DNA of 64,000 nucleotides, taken from contig JAGOSG010000003.1 of the NCBI GenBank assembly GCA_018062445.1, positions 29,842-93,841 on the forward strand, in the 5' to 3' direction. The stretch is from Minisyncoccota bacterium. GTDB taxonomy: Bacteria > Patescibacteriota > Minisyncoccia > Phycocordibacterales > Phycocordibacteraceae. The stretch's first letter is position 1; every line of letters starts with the position of its first letter. Shown piece by piece: positions 1-61,775 of the stretch. The notes below the pieces were generated by a model. That model saw nothing but the letters and a program-made list of their open reading frames with translations. It searched no databases and was not told the origin of the DNA. Position numbers and translations under genes: made by a program.

Positions 1-19
1 GCTTTCAGGGGGACATTGG

Positions 20-60
20 TTAGGGGACAAAGTTAGCTTTCGACCCCTCGCTTTTAGGGA
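20..60. repeat. family B (TTAGGG/GTTTAGGG-type) motif copy
   Basis: ttaggggacaaagttagctttcgacccctcgcttttagggagg. Confidence 0.4.
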
Positions 61-74
61 GGAGTTGGAGGTTA

Positions 75-112
75 GAAGCTGGAAGCCGACAGCTGAAACC
101 TGACAGCTACTC
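75..112. repeat. family A intergenic repeat copy
   Basis: gaagctggaagccgacagctgaaacctgacagctactc; 3' of virB4. Confidence 0.6.
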
Positions 113-1918
113 AGATGCTTCCCTCTTCTGTTGGGCTATTGCAAGCAGTTGAGATGGGTCTGAGGTGATTATTTGGTCTTCAGTGTAGGATGCAATTATT
201 TTTATGGCGACATGTTTGAGCCCCGCGAAGAAAATCCCCTCACCCACATCAGATTCAAGCAGAAGGTATTTTTCTTCCTCCGTGAGGTTGAATGTTTTTT
301 GTACGGCATCTATGGATGTTGGTGATTGCTTCAAAAGAAGTTGGATTGATGAGTTAGTAAGCATCGGCAGTCCGTAGGGTGATTTTAGGAAGTCCTCAAC
401 ATCTTGAGTAATGGTAGCGAGACCAAGATAGTATTTTCTTCCGCGCTTTGCCATTCCGTAAAGGAACGCTGCAGTATCTTCTGATTTCATCATCCACCAC
501 GCCTCATCAATAACAAGAAGTCGTTTGCGCAAATCTTTTCTCACCGCATTCCAAATGAAGTGCGTAATGATGTACATCGCAATCGTTTTCAGTTCATCCT
601 CCATGTTCCGAACCGAGAACGCAACGAACTTTTTGTTGATGTCCACATTGGTTGGTCGATTAATAAAGCCAGACCATGTGCCCTTGGTGTATTTTGTGAT
701 TCTCTGAACTAAAGACTCACTTCCTTCCATGCCAGCAAGTACCAATTCGAAGTCAGAAAGGAGCGGTGGTTCCATGTTGGTGAAGTCGTTCGCACCAGTA
801 ATGTCTTTGAGTGCATATGTTTCTGTAATTGCGCGGTCAATAATTGCATCTTCTTCAGGAGTAAGACCTCCGAGCATTAAGCGAAATAGTCCCACGAGGT
901 TGATGATGTTTGAGCGGAGAATATCAGCTGGCGATTCATCTTCGCGAGGCACAGGCAAATCAAAAGGATTGATGCGATTTTCTGATGAGAGCGAGATATT
1001 GAAAAATCTTCCACCCACCGCATTTGCAAGATATTCATACTCGCTTTCAGGGTCTATAACAATGACCTCCGTGTCGAACATCAATGACCTCAAGATTTCA
1101 AGTTTTGTGCCGTATGATTTTCCTGAACCTGATTTTGCAAAGGTTACCGAATTGTAGTTTTCAAGTGAAAATCTATCAAAAAGAATCAATGATGAGTTGT
1201 GTCTGTTTATGCCGTAGAGAATTCCTTTATCGCTCGTAAGGTCGAAGGAAATAAACGGGAAGAAACTTGAGAGTGGTGCAGAATTCATCTTTGAATTAAC
1301 CGCCAGTTGGTCATCCCCTATTGGTATGACACTCTTGAATCCTTGTTCTTGTTGGAACAGGGCGGGTTTTATGTAGACAAGCTTTGAGTCAAGAATTGAG
1401 CGCATTTCTGCTTCAGTTTTGTCCAATTCGTCTTGGTTTGTGCCGTAAATTGAGATATAGAGGCCTACATCAAATACTCGTTCTTGCGCTTGTTGGAGTT
1501 GATTTCTGAGTTGCTCGATGTCTTGGTAGGCCGTGTCGAGCATTGGATCCCGCACCATCCCTTTTTCTTGACGGGTCATGATTTGGCTCTGTACCTCAGC
1601 AACTTTTTTCTGAAACTTCCGGAGAATTGCCGCAGTGTCTACAGGATGAATGAATATAGAAATATCGAGCACTCGGTCACGATTAATGATTGGTGCGAAC
1701 CATGTTCCCGATAGGAATCGAGGATACGAAATTACGTAGAATGTGCGCACCAACTTGTCGCCCAAGTTCATTTCACGCGGGGTAATTTTCAGAGCTGATG
1801 GTGCAATGATGTCTGCAAAGTCGAGTTTCGCAGCTTCATAAATATCCTTAGGTAAAAAAGGAGTTAGGGCGTCCTTATTTTTCCCAGCGTTACCTAAAAA
1901 TGTATCGAAGATTCCCAT
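107..1918 (-). CDS. virB4: VirB4/TrbE/TraE-family conjugal-transfer ATPase, C-terminal ATPase portion of a split gene
   Basis: Walker A FAKSGSGKSY, Walker B LLVIDEAWWMM, CagE/TrbE/VirB-type N-region; 603 aa. Confidence 0.8.
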   Translation of the reverse strand: MGIFDTFLGNAGKNKDALTPFLPKDIYEAAKLDFADIIAPSALKITPREMNLGDKLVRTFYVISYPRFLSGTWFAPIINRDRVLDISIFIHPVDTAAILRKFQKKVAEVQSQIMTRQEKGMVRDPMLDTAYQDIEQLRNQLQQAQERVFDVGLYISIYGTNQDELDKTEAEMRSILDSKLVYIKPALFQQEQGFKSVIPIGDDQLAVNSKMNSAPLSSFFPFISFDLTSDKGILYGINRHNSSLILFDRFSLENYNSVTFAKSGSGKSYGTKLEILRSLMFDTEVIVIDPESEYEYLANAVGGRFFNISLSSENRINPFDLPVPREDESPADILRSNIINLVGLFRLMLGGLTPEEDAIIDRAITETYALKDITGANDFTNMEPPLLSDFELVLAGMEGSESLVQRITKYTKGTWSGFINRPTNVDINKKFVAFSVRNMEDELKTIAMYIITHFIWNAVRKDLRKRLLVIDEAWWMMKSEDTAAFLYGMAKRGRKYYLGLATITQDVEDFLKSPYGLPMLTNSSIQLLLKQSPTSIDAVQKTFNLTEEEKYLLLESDVGEGIFFAGLKHVAIKIIASYTEDQIITSDPSQLLAIAQQKREASE

Positions 1919-1920
1919 AA

Positions 1921-2592
1921 TTATATAAATGGTGCGTTAGTTTGATCCACAACGATTGGTTTTTCCAATTCCCCAGGATTGAACTCTTTGTAGAGAAGTT
2001 CTATGACCTCTTCAGTGCCGAGAGGAACAGTTCGCACACCTGTTCGGGCCAACCCTTGTTCCACTACCCCCATTCTCTGCTCTAACTGTGTACGGTGTTC
2101 CTCAAAACCAATAGCATTTTCATCTCTCGATGACAGATTTGTCTTCCCAAACACTTTATTTTGCACTGCCTTTTTTATATCAAGAGCTGGTGGAGAGTAT
2201 GGAACAACAATAAAAAAATGTTTACTCATAATGTTCGCTCTCTCAATGAATGTTTTGATGAACTCTATATATTCGCGCACCTGTATTTTCATCAGTTCCT
2301 CTGTCTGCGCTTTAAGTCGTTCCTCCAGAAGTGCTATGTACGGCCTGATATCGAGTTTTCGAGATTGTATGAAAAACTGAACACTGAAATCAAGCGAATT
2401 CATAAAGCTCTGAAATTGCGAGAGTATGGCGTTTTGTTCGTCCTCTGACTTAAGTGCAAAGTTAATACTTGAAGCAAGCATTACACCGACGAGTGTGCCG
2501 CCTTTCATTACCATCACGCCCCCACGGACTTCCTTTACTGGAACGAAGTCCTGAGCCGCTTTTGTTTTTTTTGTTTTTTCGTCACCAGACAT
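1921..2592 (-). CDS. VirB4 N-terminal domain encoded as a separate ORF (split/frameshifted VirB4)
   Basis: DFVPVKEVRGG..INFALKSEDEQ..SVQF matches Gram-positive VirB4 (PrgJ/TcpF-type) N-termini; stop TAA then 2 nt then ATG of the ATPase ORF. Confidence 0.6.
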   Translation of the reverse strand: MSGDEKTKKTKAAQDFVPVKEVRGGVMVMKGGTLVGVMLASSINFALKSEDEQNAILSQFQSFMNSLDFSVQFFIQSRKLDIRPYIALLEERLKAQTEELMKIQVREYIEFIKTFIERANIMSKHFFIVVPYSPPALDIKKAVQNKVFGKTNLSSRDENAIGFEEHRTQLEQRMGVVEQGLARTGVRTVPLGTEEVIELLYKEFNPGELEKPIVVDQTNAPFI

Positions 2593-2600
2593 AATGTAAT

Positions 2601-2635
2601 AAGCTTCCAGCTGTCAGGTTCCGGCTTTCAGCTTC
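2601..2635. repeat. family A repeat, left inverted repeat flanking the four-helix-bundle gene
   Basis: aagcttccagctgtcaggttccggctttcagcttc; encodes the last residues of the ORF. Confidence 0.6.
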
Positions 2636-2997
2636 TCAATCATTGAAGCAAGCATTCGCCCGATCTCTTTTAGGGAAGCGATACAATCATTATACTCCAC
2701 CTCTTTGATGAATCTTAGATCTTTTGCAATTTCAATTTGTGTTTCCAGCTCACAAAGAGAGCCAACTGACATATAAAGAAATTGCACGAAATCTTTCCTG
2801 CTTCTGCGTCCCCTTCCCTCCGCGATATTCGATGGTATGGATATGGCAGACCGTCTCATCTGGGATGTCAGCCCAAACTTTTCTTCAGTCGGAAAAGAAT
2901 TTGTTATTTTATATAAGCGAATTACGAAGTCTTTTGATTTTTGCCACACCACTAAGTCACGATACGAGAGTATTTTTTGATTTTGAGTTGATGCCAT
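2614..2997 (-). CDS. four-helix-bundle protein (23S rRNA intervening-sequence protein family)
   Basis: YRDLVVWQKS..FP..E.FGLTSQ.RRSAISIPSNIAEG.GR signature; flanked by inverted repeats. Confidence 0.8.
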   Translation of the reverse strand: MASTQNQKILSYRDLVVWQKSKDFVIRLYKITNSFPTEEKFGLTSQMRRSAISIPSNIAEGRGRRSRKDFVQFLYMSVGSLCELETQIEIAKDLRFIKEVEYNDCIASLKEIGRMLASMIEKLKAGT

Positions 2998-3005
2998 TGA
3001 AGTTA

Positions 3006-3040
3006 AAAAGCTGGAAGCTGACAGCTGGAACCTGAAACCT
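3006..3040. repeat. family A repeat, right inverted repeat flanking the four-helix-bundle gene
   Basis: aaaagctggaagctgacagctggaacctgaaacct; inverted relative to 2601-2635. Confidence 0.6.
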
Positions 3041-3479
3041 ACCCCCGCTGTTTCTTGTCACTATACATACTCTCCTTTATATCCAAGCTCCACGCTAAGT
3101 CTTTAATTTTGTTTGAAGTGGCTGAGGGGGCATATTTTGCTGGATCTTCAGCGGGTGTTTGCCCAGGTAGAACAATTTCGTCAGGGAGGACAGTTTTTGA
3201 TTGTTTCTTTTCCCAAATATAGAGTTTTGTGCGAAAAAGGTACTGAAAGCCAGATTCGAGAGCGTTTATAAGTGGTCGGTCATTAATTTTATAGAATGCG
3301 AGCCCAGCACCCAACAGTGCGATTGGTCCACCAATAACTATTGCCAACCAGTGAGGCATAACAAACCAGAGGGCTACGAGAAACCCTCCTCCCCCGACGA
3401 GGTATATAAACTGTACTGCGGTCAGAGGGCCGAAAATTTTGTCTTCAACTTCAACGAATTGAGGAACTTGGAATTGCAT
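3039..3479 (-). CDS. PrgI/VirB3-like conjugation membrane protein
   Basis: N-terminus MQFQVPQFVEVEDKIFGPLTAVQF typical of PrgI family; two TM helices; sits upstream of VirB4. Confidence 0.6.
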   Translation of the reverse strand: MQFQVPQFVEVEDKIFGPLTAVQFIYLVGGGGFLVALWFVMPHWLAIVIGGPIALLGAGLAFYKINDRPLINALESGFQYLFRTKLYIWEKKQSKTVLPDEIVLPGQTPAEDPAKYAPSATSNKIKDLAWSLDIKESMYSDKKQRG

Positions 3480-3486
3480 ACTAATA

Positions 3487-3600
3487 AGAGTATAGCGTTT
3501 AGTAGTTAGCGTCTAGTGTTTTTCATCTAGTCATGGCTTCTAAAAACTTTTATAGCCATCGAAGTTAATGGAGTATTTCTTTAGAATTTCCCTAAACTCT
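3487..3600. repeat. family B motif pair in inverted orientation upstream of the PrgI-like gene
   Basis: tatagcgtttagtagttagcgtctagtg ... ccctaaactctatccactaacccc. Confidence 0.45.
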
Positions 3601-3622
3601 ATCCACTAACCCCTTTCCACTG

Positions 3623-4396
3623 TTACTCTACTGGCTCTCGGTACGGGTCAACCCCTCCTTTGTACGCTGGTTTTGGCGCTTCACTTACCTGTGGTTTTAT
3701 CGATGTGGGGTTTTGGGTTGCGGATGGAGTGCTATCTGTGGTTACTCCTTCTAATTTTTCTTCTGAGATTGGCGTTACCGGTATATCCGTTTCAGTTTTT
3801 TTAGTTTCAGGAGATGCATCTGCAACTAGTCCTAGTTTTTCCGCAACAATGCTTACTGAGGGTGTGTTTACGATTTCTTTTAATGTGACCGATGCTGTTG
3901 CGAGGCGTTTTTTTTCAGCTTCAGCCTCTGCTATTTCTTCAGGGTCAACCCAGCCTTCGATTTCTTCTTTTTCTGCGAGAGCGTCTAATTCTGCATCGGT
4001 CGGCATTCTGGTAGCTTCAGCTCCCTCTTGTGGCTTCGGGCCGAACTCTTCAGCATCCCACCCAGGCTCTGGTTCCATGATATTTTCACGGAGACGGCGA
4101 CTCGCCTCTTTGAAGATGCGGTCATTGAGATCATTTACTATCTCACGCATGGTTGCACTGCTAAGCTCAGGAAGAGCTTGATGGAGGTTGGTTTCAAGTG
4201 CCGACATAGGCTCTAGACCAAGCAGGGTAAGATTGGCAACCTTGCTCATTAAACTACCTTGCCATAAGTTAAGGTGGTTTTTTTTGATTAATCCGTCGTA
4301 TATTTCTGTGATTGTGTTCGAGCTTAAAAAGTCGCGAACTGGTTTCGGCAGTTTATCTTTTGCTTCCGCCCTCTCTTCTTTGGAGTATGTTTTCAT
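3623..4396 (-). CDS. hypothetical acidic protein, low-complexity C-terminus
   Basis: ORF in T4SS-like cluster; no recognisable domain. Confidence 0.45.
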   Translation of the reverse strand: MKTYSKEERAEAKDKLPKPVRDFLSSNTITEIYDGLIKKNHLNLWQGSLMSKVANLTLLGLEPMSALETNLHQALPELSSATMREIVNDLNDRIFKEASRRLRENIMEPEPGWDAEEFGPKPQEGAEATRMPTDAELDALAEKEEIEGWVDPEEIAEAEAEKKRLATASVTLKEIVNTPSVSIVAEKLGLVADASPETKKTETDIPVTPISEEKLEGVTTDSTPSATQNPTSIKPQVSEAPKPAYKGGVDPYREPVE

Positions 4397-4402
4397 ATAT
4401 TG

Positions 4403-7400
4403 TTAACTTCCAAAAGTATCCGTGTAAGCCGTCTCTTGTTCAGGAGTTAAGTGTTTCTGTTTACGCATTTCATCTAACCATGCTCGTGCTGAGTCACGTA
4501 TTGTACCCCCTGCTTTTACAGCGCGAATGAGGCCCCAGATAATAGCTCTCATTTTTGCTGGTGCAATGTACGTGTCTGTTTCGATGGCCTTTAGCTGCCT
4601 ACTGTCGAGTTCCTGAATGAAGTCTCTGCTTCCTAACATTTCTTCGGGCAATTCTTTCACAAGTTCAGCTGCTTCTGCTGGTGGAAGGTTATGGATGAGT
4701 GGTGCAATATCTTCGATGACCGTCGGCGTTTCAGGCACAGGAGGTGTCTCAGGGCTTTCTGGTGCTGCGCCTTCAGTCTGTATAGTAGTTGGCGCTGAAC
4801 CCGAAGAAGTTGCTCGACTTCGTAGTGCACTTGCAATACGAGATCGTGGTGTTTCTTCAAATTCGATTTGCCTCTCGATTGGCTGTCGGCTCACGGCAGA
4901 TGCATTCCTCTCCGCTATAGTCTCTATCTCGCTTGTTCGTCCTAGTCGGGACTCAACTTCTTCAAGTGACGCCATACCAAGACGTCTTCGTTCCTCGTTT
5001 ACCCTCTTTCGCATTTCGTCTGTGACCTCGTATTTTGATTGGCCGTCAGGGTTAGTGAGAATCCACTTTATGGCACTCTCATCACCGTAGACCAACATAC
5101 TGACACCCTGGTCTTCCATCCATACCGTATCTTTTGCAAGTCCGTATGCTTGACCAGCGTTAATGTATTTACCCATAAGCCGCTTACCCAAATCTTCCTG
5201 CTTCATTTCGTCTTGGATTTCGTTTGCCGCCTTTCCTTTGGCATATTTGAAGAAGTTATCTTCGGCGGTCTTTCTTTTTTCTGCCGCTCTGCGCACGTCT
5301 TGGTTTCGGCGGATCTTTCTCAGTTGCGCTTCCTGATCGCTCGTTATGATGCCCTTCTCGGTTTGTTCGCGCATTCGTGTATCAAACTCTTTGTCTGAGA
5401 GAGAGTCACCGTTTTCATCAAATGCATTTCTGGAAAGGAGATTTCGTTCCTGTTCACTCAGTCCCCTAGAAATGCTATTGCCTTGTTCATCTTTGTCTTG
5501 GATTGTGATTGTGTTGAAGACAGCGCTCGCTTCATCGTCAATTTTGAAGTTTATGTTTCCACGACGACGCTTGAGTGCACGCAACTTTCGTTTCTTTCCG
5601 CTCGCGATTCTAGAGTTTTTTTGTAGCTGTGTGTAAACCCCACTTGTTATTGCATCGTTGAATATTTCATTTTCCTGTAGACCCATTTCGAGACCTGGGT
5701 TTGACGTAAAGAAGTCAATTAATTCGTCAGCGGAGACGTTTTTCTTAAGCTCCTCATGGAGCCAGTAGCGTTTATCATTATACTCATCGCTGTATCTAAG
5801 TATTTTGCCCGCTGCCTTAGCTTCGTCCGTTAGTCTTCCATCAGCGGTGAGGTATTTTTCGTCTCCTTTCTTTGTGTCGACCGCATCCACGACTCTTGCT
5901 TCAAAGGCTTGGGCTGAAGTCATAACACCACCGAGGCGAGCCATTCGTATCTCGTCTCTTGTTTCACGGTCTATTGTCTTGTCCTTAACGATTTCGAGGG
6001 ACTGTTCTGTGGTGAGTGCTCGTGCCAACCTTTTGAACTCTGCTTTGTTACGTTTGTACTCTTCCTTAATGAGGTCAGTCGAGACATCGGCAAATGGCTG
6101 TTTCAGTTGATCAGTTGCATCGGCCATGGTGAGCATGATTTTCTCTCCATTCTTATCTACTGCCCCCGTATCGAACTTCTCCGTTCGCTTTAAGCGGTCG
6201 TTGTACGCGAATTTATTTTCCCAACCCCAGTTTCCGTCCTTATCTTTTACCCAACGTCTTCCTTCCCAGAGCGGTACGCCGTTCTTATCGATCTTGTTTC
6301 CATTTTGGTCCACCTTATCTCCGTCTTGCTTTCGCTTTGCTGTCCACTCCGCCCTCTCCTCGTCGTTCATCTTGTGCCAGTTTTTAGGAAGACCTGCTTT
6401 CACGAGGTCTTCCTTGCTGGATTTTCCGGTTATCTTTATGTCGTCTTCACCTTTCGCCACTGCCTTGTCGAACGCAGCTTTTACTGTAGCTTCTTGATCG
6501 AGGTGACCTCCTTTTTTTAGAGCATCCTCCTTTTTCTTGACGTAGTCGCTGACATTCGCGAGTTTGATAGTGCGTTGTTCTCTTTGCTCCTTCAAGTCCC
6601 CATAACTTGTCTTGCTACCAAACTTTGCATCTTTAAGAAACTTAGTGCCTTTCTGTATGCCACGGTCAAGAGTGGCGAGTCCTGGAACTTGGTCGAGGCG
6701 TCTTCCGCCAAGGAATCCCCATTCTCTTGCTGCAATTTTCTCTTCGTACCAGTGTCCAAGTTTATCGCCACCAAATCTCCCGATAGTTTCTCGCGCTGTC
6801 ATAGCCCCAACGTTAGTAGTAACCCAATTTGAAGCCTTGTATACATCGGTAAGGCGTTTTGCAGCTTCACTCATACCTTTAGCGATTTTGAGTGACTGCA
6901 ACATAAAGATTACTGCCACCATGAAAGTGAGTAGTGTGCCAATGAGGTTGGGACTTTCTCCGCTGAATGCGCCACTGGAATTATCAAGAATAGTGAGAGA
7001 AAAACCAACAAGAAGAAAGTACACGGGGGCAAAAAATGCCTGACTGAAAAGCGCTTCCCACCACTCCTTGGCGTATCTATTTATTTGCGGGATGGCAAGA
7101 CCGGCTATGCCGATTGGTGAGGTGATGAGAATGAGAATCAATGCGACGAATCGTCCCAATAATAGTGTGATAGCAGACAGAAATACAAATATTGTGATAC
7201 CAATGACTACGATAGCCAAAAGATCTTGCACGATTGCCATCCACTGGGAATCTTGTTTGATATCCCCAACTTTTTCATCTGCCAGATATGCCGCTATGTT
7301 GTGATTGTTGGTCCGGATGACTCTGTCAAAACGAGAAACAATGGTACAGCTCTCCCTACAATTTTCTGTGGATATGGTTGCCTTGTAGATTGCTGTAGCG

Positions 7401-8011
7401 AGAAAGTTAGAAGAATCAATAACAGCTCCTGCGAAAAAGAAACTAAAGTTTACAAGAAGAGCTGCAATGATGAGTCGCACCAAAAGTTTTTGGGCGTTTA
7501 TTGCTGCAAGATGCAGAATGGTACCAATGGCAGTTGCAATAAGGCCACCAATTATAGCGAGGTTTGCAAGGTCACGCATAATACGCCACGCGATTTGTAT
7601 ACCAACAGCGTCTGATGAGGTGACAAAGTGCCCCATGTTGACGACTAGCTGCTCCACAACGAAATTGAAAAAGCTTCCTACGAGGAAAAGAATAAATGTC
7701 ATTATTTGCACCAGTAGCCAGGTGATTATATGGAGGATGCCCCCAATAAGCTCTCCAAGAGGGTCTATCACGGCATCTTTTATTGCTTCCGCTATCCTGG
7801 CACCAGCCGCACCTTGTTCTGCTGAGTAGGTGGCTTCTGCAGTTTGTTGAGCTGTCGCAGCTTCAGGTGCAACAGTTGCAAGACCGCCAGCCGCCCCGCT
7901 TGCTCCAGGCTCCCCAGCAAATGCTAGATGTGAAGGCACCACAAACCCAGCGAGAGTAATGGTGAGTAAAAGAATTAAAAAAACTTTCTTCATGTCTAAT
8001 AGGTTCTGCAT
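4403..8011 (-). CDS. VirB6/TrbL-like polytopic membrane protein with ~800-aa charged coiled-coil-rich C-terminal extension
   Basis: Signal-like N-terminus, ~6-8 TM helices in the first 400 aa, then K/E/D/R-rich hydrophilic region; 1202 aa. Confidence 0.6.
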   Translation of the reverse strand: MQNLLDMKKVFLILLLTITLAGFVVPSHLAFAGEPGASGAAGGLATVAPEAATAQQTAEATYSAEQGAAGARIAEAIKDAVIDPLGELIGGILHIITWLLVQIMTFILFLVGSFFNFVVEQLVVNMGHFVTSSDAVGIQIAWRIMRDLANLAIIGGLIATAIGTILHLAAINAQKLLVRLIIAALLVNFSFFFAGAVIDSSNFLATAIYKATISTENCRESCTIVSRFDRVIRTNNHNIAAYLADEKVGDIKQDSQWMAIVQDLLAIVVIGITIFVFLSAITLLLGRFVALILILITSPIGIAGLAIPQINRYAKEWWEALFSQAFFAPVYFLLVGFSLTILDNSSGAFSGESPNLIGTLLTFMVAVIFMLQSLKIAKGMSEAAKRLTDVYKASNWVTTNVGAMTARETIGRFGGDKLGHWYEEKIAAREWGFLGGRRLDQVPGLATLDRGIQKGTKFLKDAKFGSKTSYGDLKEQREQRTIKLANVSDYVKKKEDALKKGGHLDQEATVKAAFDKAVAKGEDDIKITGKSSKEDLVKAGLPKNWHKMNDEERAEWTAKRKQDGDKVDQNGNKIDKNGVPLWEGRRWVKDKDGNWGWENKFAYNDRLKRTEKFDTGAVDKNGEKIMLTMADATDQLKQPFADVSTDLIKEEYKRNKAEFKRLARALTTEQSLEIVKDKTIDRETRDEIRMARLGGVMTSAQAFEARVVDAVDTKKGDEKYLTADGRLTDEAKAAGKILRYSDEYNDKRYWLHEELKKNVSADELIDFFTSNPGLEMGLQENEIFNDAITSGVYTQLQKNSRIASGKKRKLRALKRRRGNINFKIDDEASAVFNTITIQDKDEQGNSISRGLSEQERNLLSRNAFDENGDSLSDKEFDTRMREQTEKGIITSDQEAQLRKIRRNQDVRRAAEKRKTAEDNFFKYAKGKAANEIQDEMKQEDLGKRLMGKYINAGQAYGLAKDTVWMEDQGVSMLVYGDESAIKWILTNPDGQSKYEVTDEMRKRVNEERRRLGMASLEEVESRLGRTSEIETIAERNASAVSRQPIERQIEFEETPRSRIASALRSRATSSGSAPTTIQTEGAAPESPETPPVPETPTVIEDIAPLIHNLPPAEAAELVKELPEEMLGSRDFIQELDSRQLKAIETDTYIAPAKMRAIIWGLIRAVKAGGTIRDSARAWLDEMRKQKHLTPEQETAYTDTFGS

Positions 8012-10020
8012 TGGGCTAGCTCTGTAGTTGCGGTTGCGGTCATTTCTGCGAGCAATGTTTTAGATGCATCACGGTCATTGGTAAGAGAAGCGAGGTTATT
8101 TTGCGTATGTATAGGTCCATATGTTTTGAGAGAGTTGAATGCCTCAGAGAGCGCGTTAATTTCAGTAGAAGTTTCAGCACTCCCTACCTCCGATTGCAGT
8201 GCTTCGAGTGATGAAGAGGTGCTGTCTGAATTATCAAACGCAACTGAAGCTAATTCTATTTGGGGAGTGAGCGTAGTATGAACCGTTGAAGATGCCTGGT
8301 TCATTTTTGTGGTTGCCGTTGCAGAATCAATACCCAATCCTCCGCCCTTAGTGACGAGAGCTAGGTAGCAAGCTTGCACAGAAACATACCCGCTCTTTGT
8401 GTTCTCTAGATTAAGAATCATGTCGGCAAGAGTGGCTTGGTATGCGTATTCGATCACCAGCGATTTTTCTATGTTGTCGTTTAAGGTAAGTTTTGTTTGG
8501 TTTGCAGCACTGGCGCCGGTGTTTTGAGTTAGGTTATCAAGATATGAACCATTTCCCGTTGAGCTTTTATTAGACAGCCCAACTAAGCCTTTCAAGCTTG
8601 TGAGAGCCTGCTGACCGAGCTGTGCAAATAAAGAATTTACCAAGCTTCCAATATCATTTGCATTTTGTTGTTGACGCGCACCACTGAGCTGTGTGTCAGT
8701 GTGTACATCTTTTTGGTCAACCCCCGGCGTTGCAACTGCGTATGTTTGTAAGACTAAACATTCTTCCTCCGTGCCTGCCGTACTCCCGTCGCTACAAGTT
8801 ACTTTCGGATAGAACCCCTGACCATCACGGAGCTGTCGTTCTCTGTCGGCGGCAGCCAAAGTGTTTCTCTCCTGGATATACTTTTGGGTAATCATGGTGA
8901 GGCCTTCTGCTGTGCAACCATTCGTCAGAGTAATTGCTAGTCGTGTAGTACGTCTTTCGTCATCTGTTGAACCACATTGTGTAATATCTTTCATACACGC
9001 AACAACATCCACTTTCTCTGCTGGAGGGCATGCTACTTGCTCCGCAAAACTTGTTTTTAAATTAGTATTAGCCACTACATTTCTTTGAACTACAGGAACA
9101 AGAGATGGGACAATTCCACTGTTTGTTAGTAGATTATCAACGACATTTCTAGTGATTATGTCGTTGGTTGTGTGAGTGATTTCTACCAAAGATCTATTTT
9201 CAAAGATTGGCCCACCGTCTCTACCTGTGGTTGTGTATCTGGTATTTTCTTCAGCGAGTCGTGCTGTTGCGTCTATACGAGTTTTGCGTACTAAGACATT
9301 TTGTATACAGGTTACTTCAAGTTGCGTATCTTGGTCAGCTTGAATTTGTTTTGTGTTCCCTTGGATTTTCTGGTTAACATCATGGATTTTTTGAGTGTTG
9401 CTCTGCACCGTGCTGTCGCTCACTGGCACGGCACCCATTCCTCCGCCTATCAAACCTAATGCGCCTCCGGCGAGACCTCCGAGGCCACCACTTCCACCGA
9501 GCAAGCCCCCAATAGAGCCACCAATCCCACTGCTACTCCCGCCAAGTAATCCACTCACGGCGCCACCTATACTGCTTCCGCTACTTCCACCGAGTAAGTT
9601 TCCAACTACATTTCCCAAGCCTGAGCTACTGAGAATACTGCTTATGTTTCCATTACTACCGAGGAGACTTGAAATTATTTGGCCCGTCTGACTTCCGCCG
9701 GTAATGCTGCTGATAATTCCACTTATGTTACCGCCCTGCGCACCACTTAAAAGAGAACTGAGGTTACCTCCTTGGAATAATGATCCAAGTATTCCCGATA
9801 TTGAGCCAAGAGAACCTTGTGAGTTTGATTTACATCCTGCGACTTCAGCAGATTTACTGCTGTCGGTATCTGTGCCTGATGAAGAGAGGTTAATGTCGTT
9901 CGGCAATCCTGGGAGTAGTGTTGGATTGGTATCAATAGTTGTTGCTTCTATTGTCTCGCCAGCCGATACAGACAATGGAGCAAGAGCAAGTAACAAAATT
10001 ATGAGAATTATTTTTTTCAT
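7996..10020 (-). CDS. secreted Gly/Ser-rich repeat protein with Cys-containing C-terminal region (T4SS-associated surface protein?)
   Basis: Signal peptide MKKIILIILLLALAPLSVSA; GGLLGGS repeat tract; 16-nt overlap with upstream gene. Confidence 0.55.
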   Translation of the reverse strand: MKKIILIILLLALAPLSVSAGETIEATTIDTNPTLLPGLPNDINLSSSGTDTDSSKSAEVAGCKSNSQGSLGSISGILGSLFQGGNLSSLLSGAQGGNISGIISSITGGSQTGQIISSLLGSNGNISSILSSSGLGNVVGNLLGGSSGSSIGGAVSGLLGGSSSGIGGSIGGLLGGSGGLGGLAGGALGLIGGGMGAVPVSDSTVQSNTQKIHDVNQKIQGNTKQIQADQDTQLEVTCIQNVLVRKTRIDATARLAEENTRYTTTGRDGGPIFENRSLVEITHTTNDIITRNVVDNLLTNSGIVPSLVPVVQRNVVANTNLKTSFAEQVACPPAEKVDVVACMKDITQCGSTDDERRTTRLAITLTNGCTAEGLTMITQKYIQERNTLAAADRERQLRDGQGFYPKVTCSDGSTAGTEEECLVLQTYAVATPGVDQKDVHTDTQLSGARQQQNANDIGSLVNSLFAQLGQQALTSLKGLVGLSNKSSTGNGSYLDNLTQNTGASAANQTKLTLNDNIEKSLVIEYAYQATLADMILNLENTKSGYVSVQACYLALVTKGGGLGIDSATATTKMNQASSTVHTTLTPQIELASVAFDNSDSTSSSLEALQSEVGSAETSTEINALSEAFNSLKTYGPIHTQNNLASLTNDRDASKTLLAEMTATATTELAQCRTY

Positions 10021-10757
10021 GTTTTATTTTGAAATGCCATCACCGCTAAGAGTAGGGTATCCACACTCCCCTCAGTGTAGCTCTTTGCTTTATTAAATGT
10101 GTCCACATCGGAAAGAGCATCTATAGGATCGCCCTTCCATTTCGCCATGTTCTCAACGGCTCTTGCTAATGCCCCAACACTTTTCACCACTTCTAGGTGT
10201 TCTGTAGCGAGTGCTTTCGGCACCTCCATTATTAGCAGCGATGCTCCTATCTTTTTATATAAATCAGCCGTTGACTGAAGTGCGGGTGTTCCATAAATAT
10301 TGTCATTCATGACACTTTGTGTGAAAACCGTCACTTCATATTTTTTAACCTGACTGGCTTGACTCAAAATGACCACCAGTAGTTTGGAGTATGTGTCTAG
10401 CGAGGCCGTGTCACTGATATTTAAATCAACAAGATTGATGTTCGGCACTATAGCGGGACTCACCACTCTTTCTTTTACTAGCGAGGCAATGATGACGTCG
10501 CGCTCTCTTGCGCTGTAGTTTGTGTTTTCTGCAAGTTTTGCATACAGGTCCTCCGAAAGAGATCCTGTGAGGCTGTTATCTGAGGATTGTGTCACAGTAC
10601 TTGAAACAGATTGCCAACCTGTCATTGTTTCCCCACCAGGGATTACTGTTATTCTTTTTGGTTGATGTAGAAAGGAATACGCAGAAGATCCACCTATAAC
10701 AACGACTGCAAATATCACTGCCCAAAAAGCACCCCCCCATTTATTTTGGGTTTCCAT
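10017..10757 (-). CDS. bitopic membrane protein, possible VirB8-like component
   Basis: Short cytoplasmic N-terminus, single TM (AFWAVIFAVVVIGG), ~210-aa external domain; 4-nt overlap with downstream gene. Confidence 0.45.
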   Translation of the reverse strand: METQNKWGGAFWAVIFAVVVIGGSSAYSFLHQPKRITVIPGGETMTGWQSVSSTVTQSSDNSLTGSLSEDLYAKLAENTNYSARERDVIIASLVKERVVSPAIVPNINLVDLNISDTASLDTYSKLLVVILSQASQVKKYEVTVFTQSVMNDNIYGTPALQSTADLYKKIGASLLIMEVPKALATEHLEVVKSVGALARAVENMAKWKGDPIDALSDVDTFNKAKSYTEGSVDTLLLAVMAFQNKT

Positions 10758-10842
10758 CGTACCGTTAGTATAACCCCAGCTATAAAGGACGATTGTCCTT
10801 TATACATGCCTGTGGGGATTAGAAGCGTAGTGTTAAAAATAA

Positions 10843-10872
10843 AAACATCCGCCTGTTTGGTGGATGTTTTTA
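10843..10872 (-). terminator. intrinsic terminator after the small membrane-protein gene
   Basis: aaaaacatccgcc-tgtttg-gtggatgttttt (one mismatch in stem). Confidence 0.45.
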
Positions 10873-10890
10873 TCGGGGAAAGGTCTTTCG

Positions 10891-11160
10891 CTATTCAGGA
10901 CGATATGGGGCGTATTGTGATTCAAACTCTCGCATGAGAGATTTGATTTCAGCAATAGACAGCTGGTGTCCTTGTTCCACGGACTTTGGCGGAGATTTGG
11001 GGTTTAGAGACAAAGCCACCGCCGAAGCCCCCATAAGTCCTAGGGTAATAAGAAACGCTCTCCAAGAAATTTTCCTCTCCTCTTTCCCTCCATGTTTTTC
11101 ACTCGAATGTGTCATACCTGTTGTCTGATTTTTGATGAGCATACCATAAACACCCCACAA
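10891..11160 (-). CDS. small membrane protein
   Basis: One TM (AFLITLGLMGASAVAL); followed by an intrinsic terminator. Confidence 0.4.
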   Translation of the reverse strand: MWGVYGMLIKNQTTGMTHSSEKHGGKEERKISWRAFLITLGLMGASAVALSLNPKSPPKSVEQGHQLSIAEIKSLMREFESQYAPYRPE

Positions 11161-11251
11161 AGGTCCGACCTTTGTGGGGTGGGGGCATGGTTATTGGGTT
11201 GTTGTGTTAAAAATCTAGGATAGTGGCTCATGAGCAAGTTATAGTGTTGTT

Positions 11252-12163
11252 ATGTCTCGATTTAATGCTATTCCCTACCTCGCTTTCACCTCTATACTGC
11301 TCATTCTTTTACCGTTCGCTGTTCGAGCGAGTGAACCAGCACAAGTAAAGCAGGCGTCATTTGAAGGTACGGTACTCGAGGTTATTCCCTGCACAAACAT
11401 TTCAGGGTCTCTGGTTACGATTGGATCTTCTGGTTCCCAGTTTATATATAGAGGAGGTATTTCAAAATCAGCCCCTACCAATACTTCGCCTGCCGTAGGA
11501 AAAGAAGTCTCAGGGGTGTTATTCCCGTCATTTATTGATTGCGAAGTAGGAAATGGAGCGGAGGCAATCACCTTTAAACGACAATCCATACTTTATTATG
11601 TTTCCGCGAGCACTGCATATGCAGAGTCTTCACAAGCATCAGCACCTAGGTCATCCAATCAATCTCCTAGTTCATCGTCCAACGAGCCTTCTTTTGGTGG
11701 ATTTTCTGGTCTGTTTTCAAAACTCCAGAGTTCTTTCTCATCATTATTTTCTGGAAGTTCTGGGCAAACTCAATCAACTAGTGTCTCAACCCACACGACA
11801 TCAAACTCCAACACTTCTGCCAGTAATATTAATAACGCTAACACGTCTGGGGGAGCATCATCTGCAGGAGGTATAAGCATCAGTCAGCCATATGGCGGGA
11901 TAGTGTTGGCTGTGGTTCCTTGTACCTGTAGTGCGGGCGACTTTATGATCACACTCGGACCTCCTTCAGCAGGCACCTATCTTTTTAGTCCAACGAGTAT
12001 TCCCACCATCTACCCGTACGGATTAATTATTGTTCCTGGAGTTCATCACTTAGGTTTTTATCGCCCCTTTGGGTTCTGTAAGATGATTGCTACACCCTGC
12101 ACCGTTATTCCGATGACACGAGGCACCATCACTTCAGTAGGAACATCTCTACCGGGAAAGTAA
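11252..12163 (+). CDS. secreted Ser/Thr-rich protein with conserved Cys pairs
   Basis: Signal peptide, low-complexity S/T tract, CTC/C..C motifs. Confidence 0.5.
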   Translation: MSRFNAIPYLAFTSILLILLPFAVRASEPAQVKQASFEGTVLEVIPCTNISGSLVTIGSSGSQFIYRGGISKSAPTNTSPAVGKEVSGVLFPSFIDCEVGNGAEAITFKRQSILYYVSASTAYAESSQASAPRSSNQSPSSSSNEPSFGGFSGLFSKLQSSFSSLFSGSSGQTQSTSVSTHTTSNSNTSASNINNANTSGGASSAGGISISQPYGGIVLAVVPCTCSAGDFMITLGPPSAGTYLFSPTSIPTIYPYGLIIVPGVHHLGFYRPFGFCKMIATPCTVIPMTRGTITSVGTSLPGK

Positions 12164-12168
12164 TTTTT

Positions 12169-12975
12169 TTACTTCGCTAAATATTTTGTGAGAGCAAACC
12201 ACTGATCTAGAGTGATATCTTCGGCACGAGCTTTTCCAGGGATACCAACTCGCTCAAGAGCCTCTCCGGAATTAACACCAAGTATTTTTCTTAGGTTTCC
12301 TGCGAGCGTTTTTCTTTTCTGTGCGAAACCTGCTTTTACGATGCGGAAAAAATCTTCTTCTTCAATCTTTTTCAAATTTTTATTTGAAATGTCATACACG
12401 GCAAGTATCGCTGAATCAACTGATGGTGATGGATTGAAGCTTCCTCGAGAAACTGTTTTTATATATTTTGGAGTGCCATATGCTTTTACGGAGAGCGAAA
12501 GAATACTTTCTTTTTTACTTCGTGCAATTCTTTCCGCAACTTCTTTTTGTACCAGAAGTGCAAGCGAGACAGGTTTATTTTTTGCAGTTAAGCATGAGCG
12601 AATTAATTCTCCTGTGATGTAGTACGGAATATTTGCGGCAATTTTGTATGCGCCTTTTGGAAATACTTTATCAGGCGTATAGTCGCGAGCATCGCCCTCA
12701 ATCAGTGTCAGTAAACCCGAACTAAGTTCGTCAGTAAATTTTTCTTTGAGCACCGAAACCATTGCCGGATCTTTTTCAACTGCGGTTACTATTCCTCCAA
12801 GCGAAAGTATTTCTTTGGTTAGCATTCCCTTCCCTGGTCCTATCTCAAGCACCCTGTCTCCATGAGTAACATTTGCAGCAACAGCCACAGCACGGGCAAT
12901 GCCAACGTTAGTGAGTAGATGTTGTCCGAGTTTTGCACCTCGGCGCACTTTAGGTGATCGAGGGGATTTCATCAT
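12169..12975 (-). CDS. rsmA: 16S rRNA (adenine1518/1519-N6)-dimethyltransferase
   Basis: LGQHLL start, SAM motif VLEIGPGKG, KsgA-like length. Confidence 0.9.
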   Translation of the reverse strand: MMKSPRSPKVRRGAKLGQHLLTNVGIARAVAVAANVTHGDRVLEIGPGKGMLTKEILSLGGIVTAVEKDPAMVSVLKEKFTDELSSGLLTLIEGDARDYTPDKVFPKGAYKIAANIPYYITGELIRSCLTAKNKPVSLALLVQKEVAERIARSKKESILSLSVKAYGTPKYIKTVSRGSFNPSPSVDSAILAVYDISNKNLKKIEEEDFFRIVKAGFAQKRKTLAGNLRKILGVNSGEALERVGIPGKARAEDITLDQWFALTKYLAK

Positions 12976-14881
12976 TCCAGAAAGGAAACACTACCACATC
13001 GCGATACTCAGGATCGAGTTCAGTAATGAAAACTGAAGGCATATTTTCCGAGCGTGTGCCAAATATTCGACGCGTTCGCGCATAGGTTGTGTATACAAGA
13101 CTTTTTGCGCGCGTGAGAGCAACATAAAAAAGTCGTCGCTCTTCTTCAGTGTCTACGCCGTCTGCACCATCTCGCTCATGAGGAAATAACCCTTCTTCTA
13201 AGCCAGCAATAAAGACAACACTAAACTCTAAACCTTTTGCGGCGTGTACGGTCATTAACTTCACGCCAGATGCAGGTTTTTCTAGTTCATCTTGATCTGA
13301 CTGTAGTACGGCTTCTTCTATAAGGCGTTCAATACCAGTTCCCAGTGGAAGTGTGTCGTATTTCGTTGCAACAGTAACGAGCTCTTTTAGGTTTTCAAGT
13401 CTCTCTGCATCCTCAGCATTTTTTTCAGAATACAAACGCCACATGCCACTTTCGGTGAGAGCAAAATATACTGCTTCTGATGCGCTTTTTTCCTCTATGG
13501 CTTTTGCGATGCGAGAAAGTGTTTGACGAAAGAGGTGTATTTTTTCTTTTGCTGAAGCAGGAAGGTTTTCTTCTTGATGATTAATTATTTTTGCGAGTGT
13601 GACCTTACCAATGCCACGAGACGGCGTTGCAATTGCGCGTGTTATATCGGCTGCAGAATCAGGGTTCAGGGCTGCGCGCAAATAGGAGAGTGCATCTTTC
13701 ACTTCTTTGCGTTCAAAAAATCGAGTGCCAAGAACTTGGTATGGAACTCCGGCTCGCAAAAATCCTTCTTCCAAGACTCTCGATTGAAAGTTTGCACGAT
13801 ACAAAACTGCAATATCTTCTGCACGAAGCCCTTTCCCTATCAAATTTCGCGCTTCACGTGCAATAAAGTTTGATTCTTCATTTTCATCTGCAAATCCTGC
13901 CACTTGTATTTTTTCTCCATCTTCATTCTTTGTGTGCAATTCTTTGTCTCGGCGATTTACATTTTTTGCTATTGCATCGTTTGCAGCAGATAAAATTGTT
14001 TTGGTGGAACGGTAGTTTTCCGTGAGTAAAATGATTTCTGCATTTGGAAATGCTTTTTCAAAATTCATAATGTGTTCAATGGAAGCTCCTCGCCAGCTAT
14101 AAATGTTTTGATCGACATCACCAACAGCCGCGATATTGCCATGGCGCTCGCTTAGTAATTTTACAATTTCATACTGCACGCGGTTGGTGTCTTGGTACTC
14201 ATCAACGTGAATGTAGTCCCAGGCATTCTGGAAGTGTTCTCGCGCAGGGGGGTGGTTAGTAAGAAGCCAGTGCGCTGTAAGGAGGATGTCATCAAAATCG
14301 AGTGCTTTTTCTTTTTTCAAAATAGCTTCGTAGCGTCCCCAAACTTCTCCAACCGCTTCATCAATATATGAGGATGCATGTTCATTCTGAAATTCTCTCT
14401 GCCCTATGGCCTCCCCTTTCTTTCTGCTCATTATAGAAATTACTTTGCGAGGCTCTAGCTGTTTTGGGTCGAAGCCAGCTGCGGTGATAGCTTCCCTCAT
14501 GGCGCGGGTAGAATCTGCACGGTCATAAATAGTGAAACGCGCTGGCAACCCTACTGCACCGTGGAATGTTTTTATTATTTCCAAGGAGAGCCTATGAAAT
14601 GTGCCTATAAAAGGGTCGTGTCTTGGGGTGTCATATGGAGAAAGAACCAAATCTGTCTTTATAAGGTGGGAGACACGCTCTTTCATCTCCTTAGCTGCCT
14701 TATTGGTGAATGTAACTGCCAAAATGCGTTGCGGTGCGGTACCCTCGCGGATTATTTCAGCTATGCGGTGCACAATAACCCTCGTTTTGCCTGCCCCTGC
14801 CCCTGCCAATATAAGGAGTGCCCCCTTGGAATGCAGAACCGCTTTCTTTTGGGCTTCATTTAGGTGTTTAAGGTGGTCCAC
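12950..14881 (-). CDS. pcrA: ATP-dependent DNA helicase, UvrD/PcrA family
   Basis: LNEAQKKAV..AGAGAGKTRV Walker A; UvrD motifs; 643 aa. Confidence 0.9.
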   Translation of the reverse strand: MDHLKHLNEAQKKAVLHSKGALLILAGAGAGKTRVIVHRIAEIIREGTAPQRILAVTFTNKAAKEMKERVSHLIKTDLVLSPYDTPRHDPFIGTFHRLSLEIIKTFHGAVGLPARFTIYDRADSTRAMREAITAAGFDPKQLEPRKVISIMSRKKGEAIGQREFQNEHASSYIDEAVGEVWGRYEAILKKEKALDFDDILLTAHWLLTNHPPAREHFQNAWDYIHVDEYQDTNRVQYEIVKLLSERHGNIAAVGDVDQNIYSWRGASIEHIMNFEKAFPNAEIILLTENYRSTKTILSAANDAIAKNVNRRDKELHTKNEDGEKIQVAGFADENEESNFIAREARNLIGKGLRAEDIAVLYRANFQSRVLEEGFLRAGVPYQVLGTRFFERKEVKDALSYLRAALNPDSAADITRAIATPSRGIGKVTLAKIINHQEENLPASAKEKIHLFRQTLSRIAKAIEEKSASEAVYFALTESGMWRLYSEKNAEDAERLENLKELVTVATKYDTLPLGTGIERLIEEAVLQSDQDELEKPASGVKLMTVHAAKGLEFSVVFIAGLEEGLFPHERDGADGVDTEEERRLFYVALTRAKSLVYTTYARTRRIFGTRSENMPSVFITELDPEYRDVVVFPFWNDEIPSIT

Positions 14882-19085: not shown

Positions 19086-19152
19086 AGGTGTCAGGTTCCA
19101 GCTGTCAGCTTCAAACCTCTCCCTAGAAGCTGAAACCTAGCACCTTGAACCT
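19086..19152. repeat. family A repeat copy (extended)
   Basis: aggtgtcaggttccagctgtcagcttcaaacc...gaagctgaaacctagcacc; upstream of the traR-like start. Confidence 0.6.
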
Positions 19153-22745: not shown

Positions 22746-22788
22746 AAAGCTGAAAGCTGAAAGCTGGAACCTGACACCTGAAAGCTTC
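22746..22788. repeat. family A repeat copy
   Basis: aaagctgaaagctgaaagctggaacctgacacctgaaagcttc; between NYN stop and pnp start. Confidence 0.6.
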
Positions 22789-51146: not shown

Positions 51147-51788
51147 ATGACACATATGATCAAGAAACATTCACAATCACGCATTCTGCTCGCAAGGCGA
51201 GCATGGCAAAAATCTACAACAGGGATGAGTTTGATAGAGGTTTTGGTGACCCTCGCGGTCGTTTCATTGATTATGGTGAGTGCATCAAATTCGGTATTGG
51301 CGCTCTACAAAACAAACAACACAGGGACTCGCGCCCTAACGCAAATTAGCAGCGCTCGGTCTGCGCTCACGGCATTGATGACGGACTTGCGGAGCGTGGC
51401 GTATGGCAATGGCGGTTCGTATCCAATTGTGTCGATGTCTGCTTCGTCATTAACTTTTTTTAGTAACATTCCAAACAGCACTGGAGCTACGCGTTTTCAA
51501 TATCAAATTAATGGAACAACACTTTCTCGGAGCCAAGTGAGCGCAGGTACTCCGCCAACATACAGTGGTGTTCCAGTGAGTGAGTCGCTAGTCACATACA
51601 TACGGAGCGGCGCTGGCTCTGCGGCACTTTTCCGCTATTACGATCGCAACGGTATTGAAGTTACTGATATGAATCGAGTAACTGATGTAGCGTCAATACT
51701 GGTTTCTATTGATGTACTTGCTCCGGGAATGAGTACACCGTTTATACTTACTGCCACTACCACGCTTCGTAATTTAAAAACACCATGA
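51147..51788 (+). CDS. prepilin-type N-terminal domain protein (minor pilin)
   Basis: TTG|MSLIEVLVTLAVVSLIM with E+5. Confidence 0.7.
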   Translation: MTHMIKKHSQSRILLARRAWQKSTTGMSLIEVLVTLAVVSLIMVSASNSVLALYKTNNTGTRALTQISSARSALTALMTDLRSVAYGNGGSYPIVSMSASSLTFFSNIPNSTGATRFQYQINGTTLSRSQVSAGTPPTYSGVPVSESLVTYIRSGAGSAALFRYYDRNGIEVTDMNRVTDVASILVSIDVLAPGMSTPFILTATTTLRNLKTP

Positions 51789-61737: not shown

Positions 61738-61775
61738 AGTAGCTGTCAGGTTCTAGGTGTCAGCTTTCAGCTTTA
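61738..61775. repeat. family A repeat copy
   Basis: agtagctgtcaggttctaggtgtcagctttcagcttt; directly upstream of the methyltransferase ATG. Confidence 0.6.

Follow-up and report, generated by a model that had tools for sequence, protein, structure and literature searches.

Type IV secretion systems (T4SSs) occur in about 80% of Patescibacteria genomes, and in Saccharibacteria they are essential for epibiotic growth. The reading of this T4SS as a chromosomal, non-conjugative system was put forward for Saccharibacteria by Wang et al. (2023, Cell, PMC10633639), and the whole phylum, including the ksgA/dnaA neighbourhood of the locus, has been surveyed by Quinonero-Coronel et al. (2025, Microb Genom, PMC12102498). 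In that survey the Patescibacteria VirB4 clade is monophyletic and nested in the MPF_FATA lineage, TrsD is the commonest companion of VirB4, followed by PrgI and VirB6, relaxases are almost absent, genes for type IV coupling proteins (T4CPs) usually lie elsewhere in the genome, and the Paceibacteria neighbourhood is made up of ksgA, rnpA, rpmH, dnaA and dnaN. The role of the large hydrophilic domains of extended VirB6 proteins is an acknowledged open question (review, PMC12857230). Here we describe a T4SS locus with such a VirB6, found at the left end of a 64,000-nucleotide (nt) stretch of DNA from a Minisyncoccota bacterium (assembly GCA_018062445.1, contig JAGOSG010000003.1, positions 29,842 to 93,841 of the forward strand), hereafter called the window. 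The explanation that we consider highly probable is that the minus-strand block at 107-11160 is a chromosomal, non-conjugative T4SS of the Patescibacteria clade, in which the C-terminal tail of VirB6 and the N-terminal domain of the neighbouring protein p257 are exchanged together as a 3.3-kb cassette.

The locus compares closely with the T4SS of Southlakia epibionticum (SEML1_0006-0019) and with the loci of the 2025 survey. Like them it is chromosomal and has neither relaxase nor T4CP at the locus, and it shares with them a VirB4 of MPF_FATA ancestry, a separate TrsD, PrgI/VirB3 and VirB6, as well as a VirB2-like pilin nearby, here seen in relatives. The ksgA, rnpA, rpmH, dnaA and dnaN neighbourhood matches the Paceibacteria pattern. 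Unlike in S. epibionticum, there is no pilin array and no adjacent lysozyme or peptidase at the window locus. The system itself is already published and the original prediction, made from the letters of the window, recognised it correctly; as a discovery that finding is ordinary, because it adds one more instance of the known Patescibacteria T4SS.

Gene content and position of the locus

The features on which the argument rests are the following.

107-1918, minus strand: VirB4 ATPase (NTPase part, MPF_FATA/CD1110-type), 603 amino acids (aa); NCBIfam NF045971 and Pfam
1921-2592, minus strand: TrsD-like protein, 223 aa, homologous to the VirB4 N-terminal domain; NCBIfam
3039-3479, minus strand: PrgI/VirB3-like small membrane protein, 146 aa; Pfam PF12666 at 5e-9, above cutoff
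3623-4396, minus strand: p257, cytosolic accessory protein, 257 aa; transmembrane (TM) prediction and family alignment
4403-6832, minus strand: VirB6 C-terminal tail, aa 394-1202, hypervariable allele 'A'; AlphaFold2 (AF2) model and allele comparison
6833-8011, minus strand: VirB6 core, aa 1-393, signal peptide and polytopic VirB6/TrbL domain; Pfam and TM prediction
3523-6831, no strand assigned: hypervariable recombination cassette, VirB6 tail plus p257; nucleotide breakpoints

Relatives were collected by scanning the VirB4 query against one genome per species; at least 600 stretches matched, at least 574 of which encode a relative. Gene order was compared over the best 80 of these at least 574 related loci (81 loci with the window), counts downstream of VirB4 were taken from the 54 related loci whose sequence runs 5 kb or more past VirB4, and all comparison genomes are metagenome assemblies. 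VirB4 of the best 80 relatives is 73-85% identical; wherever a taxon is named they are metagenome-assembled genomes (MAGs) of Patescibacteria, mostly of Paceibacteria/Parcubacteria lineages (Kaiser-, Zambryski-, Taylor-, Adler- and Nomurabacteria).

The predicted co-directional minus-strand module was confirmed as nine consecutive minus-strand open reading frames (ORFs) between 107 and 11160, whose start and stop codons overlap or nearly abut at 10020/10017, 8011/7996, 4403/4396 and 1921/1918, which is consistent with a single operon. Profile matches bear out the naming of VirB4, PrgI/VirB3 and the 1202-aa VirB6 (NF045971, PF12666 and PF04610, respectively). VirB4 matches NF045971 (conju_CD1110) at E=1e-110, with 371 bits against a cutoff of 325, and Pfam P-loop_TraG at 9e-22, and its translation contains a Walker A (GSGKS) and a Walker B (LLVIDEAW) motif; it appears to belong to the MPF_FATA lineage, nearest to other Patescibacteria VirB4 proteins. 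The TrsD ORF, which had not been named before, lies in its own frame 2 nt upstream of virB4. It matches NF041427 (TrsD/TraD) at 1e-8 and VirB4 models over their first ~150 positions, and it stands directly upstream of VirB4 in 78 of the 81 loci, with a PF26593 TraC-like label in relatives. PrgI/VirB3, with a hydrophobic hairpin at aa 19-49, is present in 75/81. VirB6 (4403-8011) starts with a signal peptide, and its ~7 hydrophobic helices end by aa ~375; its match to TrbL (PF04610) over aa 174-371 is marginal (8.5e-6, 26.1 bits against a cutoff of 25.9), the same model matches 18 of 40 family members (best 1.4e-8), and a structural search found fold similarity to solved VirB6, with DotA as the best match. 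Together VirB4 and TrsD, the detached homologue of its N-domain, would supply the ATPase, and PrgI/VirB3 with the extended VirB6 would supply a membrane translocon or the base of a pilus-assembly machine. To judge from this gene content, the block is a T4SS derived from monoderm MPF_FATA conjugation machinery, carried by a Paceibacteria (Parcubacteria) genome and placed between uvrD-ksgA and the origin gene group.

Synteny is conserved: in the best 80 loci the order is uvrD-ksgA, variable membrane or secreted genes, VirB6, a cytosolic gene, PrgI, TrsD and VirB4, and in the window ksgA lies at 12169-12975. Past VirB4, 52 of 54 relatives encode a secreted PKD-like protein, a VirB2-like pilin and p400, a bitopic protein of ~400 aa. 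The pilin itself was detected in 48/54 (PF18895, best E 5e-8) and lies 1-2.7 kb downstream of virB4. Beyond p400 come jag/yidC/rnpA on the opposite strand, with dnaA-dnaN 4-8 kb from virB4; this dnaA side was found in 49/54 relatives and in a very close relative (L082), which has the same order from comM to virB4 followed by ORFs of 322, 310 and 404 aa, jag, yidC, rnpA, rpmH and dnaA. None of the PKD-like protein, the pilin (sought by tblastn) or p400 is present in the window and, since the relatives' downstream genes are all missing from it, the window edge cuts the locus right after virB4. No contig was found to contain a VirB4 exactly like that of the window, and a contig whose VirB6 is 98% identical (L001) stops within virB4, so the sequence to the left of position 1 is inferred from relatives. 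The locus would thus continue past position 1 with the PKD-like protein, the VirB2-like pilin, the ~400-aa bitopic protein, yidC/rnpA/rpmH and dnaA.

The absence of DNA-processing genes was also borne out for the ORFs scanned. A profile scan of the block and of the 20 largest ORFs outside it, smaller ones there being left out, gave no match to a relaxase, a VirD4-type T4CP or VirB11. The original prediction had named a relaxase or VirD4 gene immediately beyond position 1 as the finding that would speak against it; by proxy, in L082 and in 52/54 relatives, neither stands there, and a relaxase or T4CP would not fit between VirB4 and dnaA because conserved T4SS-associated genes and the yidC group fill the space (52/54 loci). 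Comparison across loci shows a position that is fixed and, on that comparative evidence, vertically inherited beside the origin, without DNA-processing genes. The earlier view of a conjugation-independent chromosomal T4SS rather than a mobile element holds up, given the fixed position and order in relatives and the missing relaxase and T4CP. As to the extent of the module, the genes between 107 and 11160 stand, with the exception of the ORF at 2614-2997, which is unrelated to the T4SS, and the locus continues past the window edge.

The surroundings are housekeeping genes, as had been noted, with pilB/pilC, comEC, comM and recJ elsewhere in the window; the 20 largest other ORFs include ComM, PNPase, the CCA-adding enzyme, PurB, GuaA, RNase Y, NusA, PilB, PilC, RecJ, ComEC and a recombinase. 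GC content is flat (0.42-0.47) and there is therefore no compositional island. An Rfam scan of the window found four tRNAs only, the nearest to the block at ~28 kb, and neither att-like flanks nor a tRNA border was found around the block. The tyrosine recombinase at 24157-25086 matches the Pfam phage-integrase family and lies 13 kb off among housekeeping genes; we take it for a putative XerC/D-type enzyme.

The VirB6 tail, p257 and the role of the pair

VirB6 lengths range from 608 to 1560 aa in 55 relatives, with a median of about 790; on this evidence an extended VirB6 is the rule in Paceibacteria, and the window protein is large without being unique. Its tail runs 828 residues past the last hydrophobic helix, with 147 K+R, 145 D+E and no Cys. 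An AF2 model of mature VirB6 (aa 33-1202, alignment of 60 sequences) has a mean predicted local distance difference test score (pLDDT) of 81.6, and model residues ~440-1000 and 1070-1170 are mostly above 90. Over model residues ~440-1000 the tail is helical throughout save for one small beta element; next come a disordered Pro/Thr/Glu linker (protein residues ~1037-1098) and a confident ~105-residue helical domain at the C-terminus. On this model the tail is a confident helical multidomain structure and not a disordered Lys/Glu extension. Its structural neighbours are generic helical repeats only, no Pfam domain was found in the tails of 40 family members, and blastp detected neither internal tail repeats nor similarity between the tail and p257. 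The tail family is rare: a set of 1.84 billion clustered proteins yielded 14 representatives, and in nearly all of these matches the tail is the C-terminal part of a VirB6-sized protein.

The gene that follows encodes p257, which has no signal peptide or TM segment. Iterative hidden Markov models (HMMs) recovered its family in 53/54 positional orthologues. Members begin with a helical domain of ~110 aa, continue with an acidic Pro/Thr-rich linker that varies between them, and end in an invariant DPYRE-x(2-3)-stop. Translated in six frames, the window contains DPYRE a single time, at the C-terminus of p257; the related loci have 52 copies close to a stop codon, and each of these belongs to the gene before PrgI. 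Between p257 and PrgI, close relatives have 0-2 paralogous small cytosolic genes (MEKGSFWDHFWG..., 137-173 aa), most of which start MEKGSFWD.FWG; they have no family match, and their copy number differs between near-identical strains. The window has a 144-nt gap there and no small paralogue. The copies in relatives are at these positions.

L001: 8433-8954
L084: 9425-9904
L085: 8024-8539 and 8832-9245
L086: 14320-14838 and 15111-15632

At the nucleotide level, L084, the contig of VirB6 homologue P0002, is 97-100% identical to the window over 6900-13800, whereas over 4400-6899 only about 45% of positions agree. The left breakpoint at 6831 (codon ~394, ~20 residues past the last hydrophobic helix) is common to L082, L083 and L084, and identity to L082 is back at 89% from 3522. 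Within the 98-100% stretch shared with L084 there is also a dip to 91-93% at 7500-8099, which takes in the end of p674 and the extracellular N-terminal portion of VirB6. At the protein level, homologues whose first 380 residues are 95-97% identical have tails that are 31% identical (P0002) or undetectable by BLAST (P0004). Pairs of VirB6 proteins compare as follows.

Window and P0002: core 97%, tail 32%
Window and P0004: core 95%, tail 9%
P0003 and P0007: core 97%, tail 11%
P0004 and P0007: core 79%, tail 93%
P0002 and P0003: core 74%, tail 90%

From this discordance we infer that tail alleles are shuffled across VirB6 core lineages. Gene-by-gene amino-acid identities in a matrix of five genomes of close strains are as follows.

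VirB4: 99-100%
TrsD: 97-99%
PrgI: 97-99%
p246: 97-100%
p674: 90-99%
VirB6 core: two lineages, 75-79% between them
VirB6 tail: three types, 20-33% between and 90-93% within types
p257, first 110 residues: 55-61% between tail types and 93-97% within

The N-domain of p257 thus follows the tail type, as it is 93-97% identical within types against 55-61% between them. Profile-profile comparison (hhalign) of the tail types gave 99.6% probability at 21% identity; since they are remote homologues, they are ancient alleles rather than unrelated insertions. A gene-conversion system of the pilE/pilS type was considered and rejected, as there are no silent tail copies elsewhere in the window.

As regards function, the machine would not conjugate DNA and would serve contact-dependent exchange with a host cell, through export of proteins or import of host material, because no relaxase or T4CP was found and because of transposon sequencing (Tn-seq) in Saccharibacteria and the published surveys. 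In our preferred reading the tail would be cytoplasmic and would join p257 in a platform for substrate docking or regulation, taking over from the coupling protein that the locus does not encode; the invariant C-terminal DPYRE would tie p257 to a conserved partner, and the tail allele would set a strain-specific substrate or partner specificity. A cytoplasmic tail is favoured because five K/R stand among the 18 residues after the last hydrophobic helix, because the tail is Cys-free whereas secreted p674 has invariant Cys, and because the tail is highly charged and the co-varying p257 is cytosolic. We propose tentatively, as a possibility still short of an even chance, that the tail and the p257 N-domain are a cognate specificity module whose divergent alleles (20-33% identical) are kept by balancing or frequency-dependent selection and exchanged by homologous recombination at the borders given by the VirB6 core and the p257 C-terminus, and which sets the substrate or the partner cell as a self/non-self, host-range or substrate code.

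The main rival, which we judge somewhat unlikely, would put the variable tail at the cell surface, as part or extension of a stalk or channel of the DotA type that chooses host cells or surface structures under host-driven diversifying selection, p257 being a cytoplasmic chaperone or assembly factor. The deep divergence is confined to the tail, with neighbours 97-100% identical, and such hypervariability suggests exposure. Moreover, in R388 VirB6 no more than two helices span the membrane and helices a5-a7 are periplasmic, the best structural match is to DotA, and other extracellular parts of the system carry adhesion-type domains in relatives (TSP3, galactose-binding, fn3 and PKD). The K/R-rich segment directly past the last hydrophobic helix does not fit a surface tail, nor do 828 residues devoid of Cys against the conserved Cys of secreted partners, about 35% charged tail residues, or a co-varying partner that is cytosolic.

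A conserved N-terminal machine domain, a variable C-terminus and a co-varying downstream gene could also belong to an effector or toxin delivered in the manner of polymorphic toxins, with either the whole tail or its last ~105-aa domain delivered and p257 as immunity protein or chaperone. The disordered Pro/Thr/Glu linker ahead of the compact C-terminal domain and the 0-2 additional small, variable cytosolic genes that directly follow p257 in relatives would suit this. We consider it unlikely: none of 40 tails contains a toxin or enzyme domain, variation extends over the entire 800-aa helical region and is not limited to a short C-terminal module, and p257, which is universal in the class and has a conserved architecture and an invariant C-terminal motif, looks more like part of the machine than like an immunity protein.

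Import of DNA or nucleotides from the host or the environment, by a ComB- or Ced-like uptake T4SS, would agree with the missing relaxase and T4CP, with the presence of ComEC, ComM, RecJ and PilB/PilC in the window and with ABY1-class T4SS loci that adjoin competence genes. This explanation seems to us unlikely, as the competence genes here lie 5-50 kb away, outside the conserved locus, CedB scores 31 bits against a cutoff of 700 and CedD 15 against 600, and in Saccharibacteria comEC is dispensable and the T4SS essential. Lastly, a decayed integrated conjugative element whose relaxase and T4CP were lost or lie outside the window is very unlikely, for although the VirB4, TrsD and PrgI families stem from monoderm conjugative elements and a tyrosine recombinase is present, location and order are fixed in the best 80 loci next to dnaA, GC is flat without att-like flanks or a tRNA border, the putative XerC/D-type recombinase is 13 kb away among housekeeping genes, and VirB4 is 99-100% conserved among close strains.

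Some points weigh against the reading that we prefer, namely a non-conjugative T4SS with an exchangeable tail and p257 N-domain. Mis-joins between co-occurring strains in MAGs could inflate the discordance between core and tail. The P0004 and P0007 proteins are each found on three contigs (two places, from different samples, are shown for P0004, and one for P0007), and the presence of three alleles between near-identical flanks holds whichever way the flanks are joined. Only ~12 sequences cover the tail in the alignment of the model, and the essentiality data come from Saccharimonadia, a different class from Paceibacteria. A distant T4CP or relaxase outside the window is possible, the 2025 survey placing the T4CP away from virB4 in most genomes; as Patescibacteria T4CP homologues lie mostly far from virB4 (PMC12102498), the lack of a T4CP at the locus does not show a genome-wide absence.

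Accessory genes, repeats and surroundings

The remaining features of the locus are listed below.

7996-10020, minus strand: p674, secreted, 674 aa, translationally coupled to VirB6; signal peptide and alignment
10017-10757, minus strand: p246, bitopic, extracellular all-helical domain, 246 aa; N-terminal TM segment and AF2 model
10891-11160, minus strand: p89, one TM segment, first operon gene, 89 aa; ORF list and TM prediction
11151-11181, minus strand: perfect hairpin with a 15-bp stem in the T4SS operon leader; inverted-repeat search and RNA fold
11252-12163, plus strand: p303, divergent secreted Ser/Gly/Thr-rich protein; signal peptide
2602-3033, minus strand: IVP passenger cassette, not a T4SS part; Pfam and inverted repeats
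76-101, 2602-2627, 3008-3033, 19093-19118, 22747-22772 and 61748-61773: copies of the repeat AAGCTGGAAGCTGACAGCTGGAACCT

The description of p674 as a secreted Gly/Ser protein is supported: it has a signal peptide, a Gly/Ser/Leu-rich region (aa ~65-195) and a Cys-containing domain, with invariant cysteines at C63, C238, C331, C369, C409, C421 and C671. Its family was found in 42/54 positional orthologues, and that of p246 in 39/49 (both with iterative HMMs). The original prediction had proposed p246 as a bitopic VirB8-like candidate; the protein is bitopic, and the VirB8 fold finds no support. An AF2 model from an alignment of 13 sequences is an all-helical bundle with pLDDT 70-88 over aa 62-246, not the NTF2-like alpha+beta fold, and in a Foldseek search against the PDB the best match was at E=0.1, to talin-rod and four/five-helix bundles, with no VirB8, TraM, PrgL or TcpC chain among the matches for this model from a shallow 13-sequence alignment; there is no VirB8 sequence match either. 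We therefore rejected VirB8 for p246. Neither p246 nor p674 nor p257 has a Pfam, NCBIfam or PDB sequence match, and no family-wide Pfam domain was found among 38 p674-family, 36 p246-family and 46 p257-family members. Profiles of the p246, p674 and VirB6 families gave only chance or low-complexity matches among PDB sequences, and TrwI was not found. As TSP3 Ca-binding repeats stand beside the membrane anchor in 10 of 36 p246 relatives, and galactose-binding or fn3 domains occur in a few p674 relatives, both proteins look extracellular. p89 is 96% identical in L001, and its translation probably begins at the in-frame ATG near 11142. Judged by their predicted features and distribution, p89, p246 and p674 are membrane-anchored or secreted accessories conserved across the class.

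The leader hairpin overlaps the listed TTG start of p89; the RNA fold of 11120-11251 on the minus strand has -34.4 kcal/mol (z=-4.1), and the hairpin may be an attenuator, a stabiliser or chance. Scans for sigma-70 promoters and terminators gave counts at or below shuffle expectation and were uninformative. On the other side of the leader, p303 is found at the same position in close relatives (78-100% identical), and opposite-strand proteins with an N-terminal TM segment occupy this position in many distant ones, so that p303 is possibly associated with the T4SS locus.

The unrelated ORF at 2614-2997 encodes a four-helix-bundle/23S_rRNA_IVP protein (Pfam 1e-41), and is bracketed by inverted 27-nt repeat copies at 2602-2628 and 3007-3033 that are 89% complementary. 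The dispersed ~26-nt intergenic repeat AAGCTGGAAGCTGACAGCTGGAACCT, to which this inverted pair belongs, has six copies in the window at up to 3 mismatches against 0 expected, and looks REP/MITE-like. Just past the virB4 stop, 65-110 is 83% identical to the 5' flank of the IVP gene (2997-3042) and 30-60 repeats a piece of its 3' end (2646-2676); window 1-110 looks like a degenerate second IVP cassette. IVP genes lie at differing intergenic sites of the T4SS cluster in 9/81 loci, which suggests a small mobile cassette.

Some observations concern the surroundings. In relatives L002-L081 the T4SS operon is transcribed toward rpmH/dnaA, that is, head-on to replication if oriC is there; the cumulative GC skew of the window has its minimum near 27-28 kb and not at the left edge, not an obvious fit to an origin just left of position 1. 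Two genes from ksgA, a protein with LysM and M23 peptidase domains is encoded at 15083-16255 on the plus strand, and its position is conserved in L082 and L086; it could be the missing VirB1-type cell-wall hydrolase or an ordinary division enzyme. ComEC looks split, with DUF4131 and Competence domains at 57599-59008 (plus strand) and the metallo-beta-lactamase domain 600 nt downstream at 59624-60466 (plus strand). Two ORFs have no Pfam match, one of 434 aa at 19151-20455 (minus strand) and one of 408 aa at 51785-53011 (plus strand), the latter just downstream of pilB/pilC.

Comparison with extended VirB6 proteins and conjugative systems

Legionella DotA, F-plasmid TraG and pCW3 TcpH are extended VirB6 proteins. 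The window protein has the same polytopic core joined to a large hydrophilic domain as the extended VirB6 proteins described earlier (Alvarez-Martinez and Christie 2009; Rickettsiales paralogues). Unlike theirs, its tail shares no detectable sequence with them, is helical-repeat-like and allelic, and co-varies with a downstream gene. In the T4SS of IncI2 plasmids (PMC11873049) diversity is likewise concentrated in VirB6 and one co-varying partner; that partner is VirB5, a secreted stalk protein, and the divergence is modest, whereas here the partner is cytosolic p257 and the alleles are 20-33% identical.

The monoderm conjugative T4SSs of pGO1, pSK41 and pIP501 have the same pair of TrsD and VirB4 (TrsD-TrsE) and a PrgI-type VirB3. 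Unlike them, the block has no relaxase, T4CP, VirB1-type hydrolase or recognisable VirB8 fold, and it is chromosomal and vertically inherited.

For the Patescibacteria systems themselves, the text of PMC10633639 and PMC12102498, so far as searched, contains no account of ~250-1200-aa Paceibacteria VirB6 tails or of allelic cassettes, nor of a DPYRE-tailed partner or the p246, p674, PKD and p400 families. A search of the literature turned up nothing relevant on the DPYRE motif or on hypervariable Patescibacteria VirB6 extensions. Thus, within a system that is known, the folded Paceibacteria VirB6 tail, the three-allele cassette with its co-varying partner and the DPYRE family are apparently new. 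The polymorphic pair of tail and partner provides a handle on the role of extended VirB6 and on what a relaxase-less T4SS transports; if the proposed specificity module is real, it would amount to a strain-level code built into a core subunit of the T4SS.

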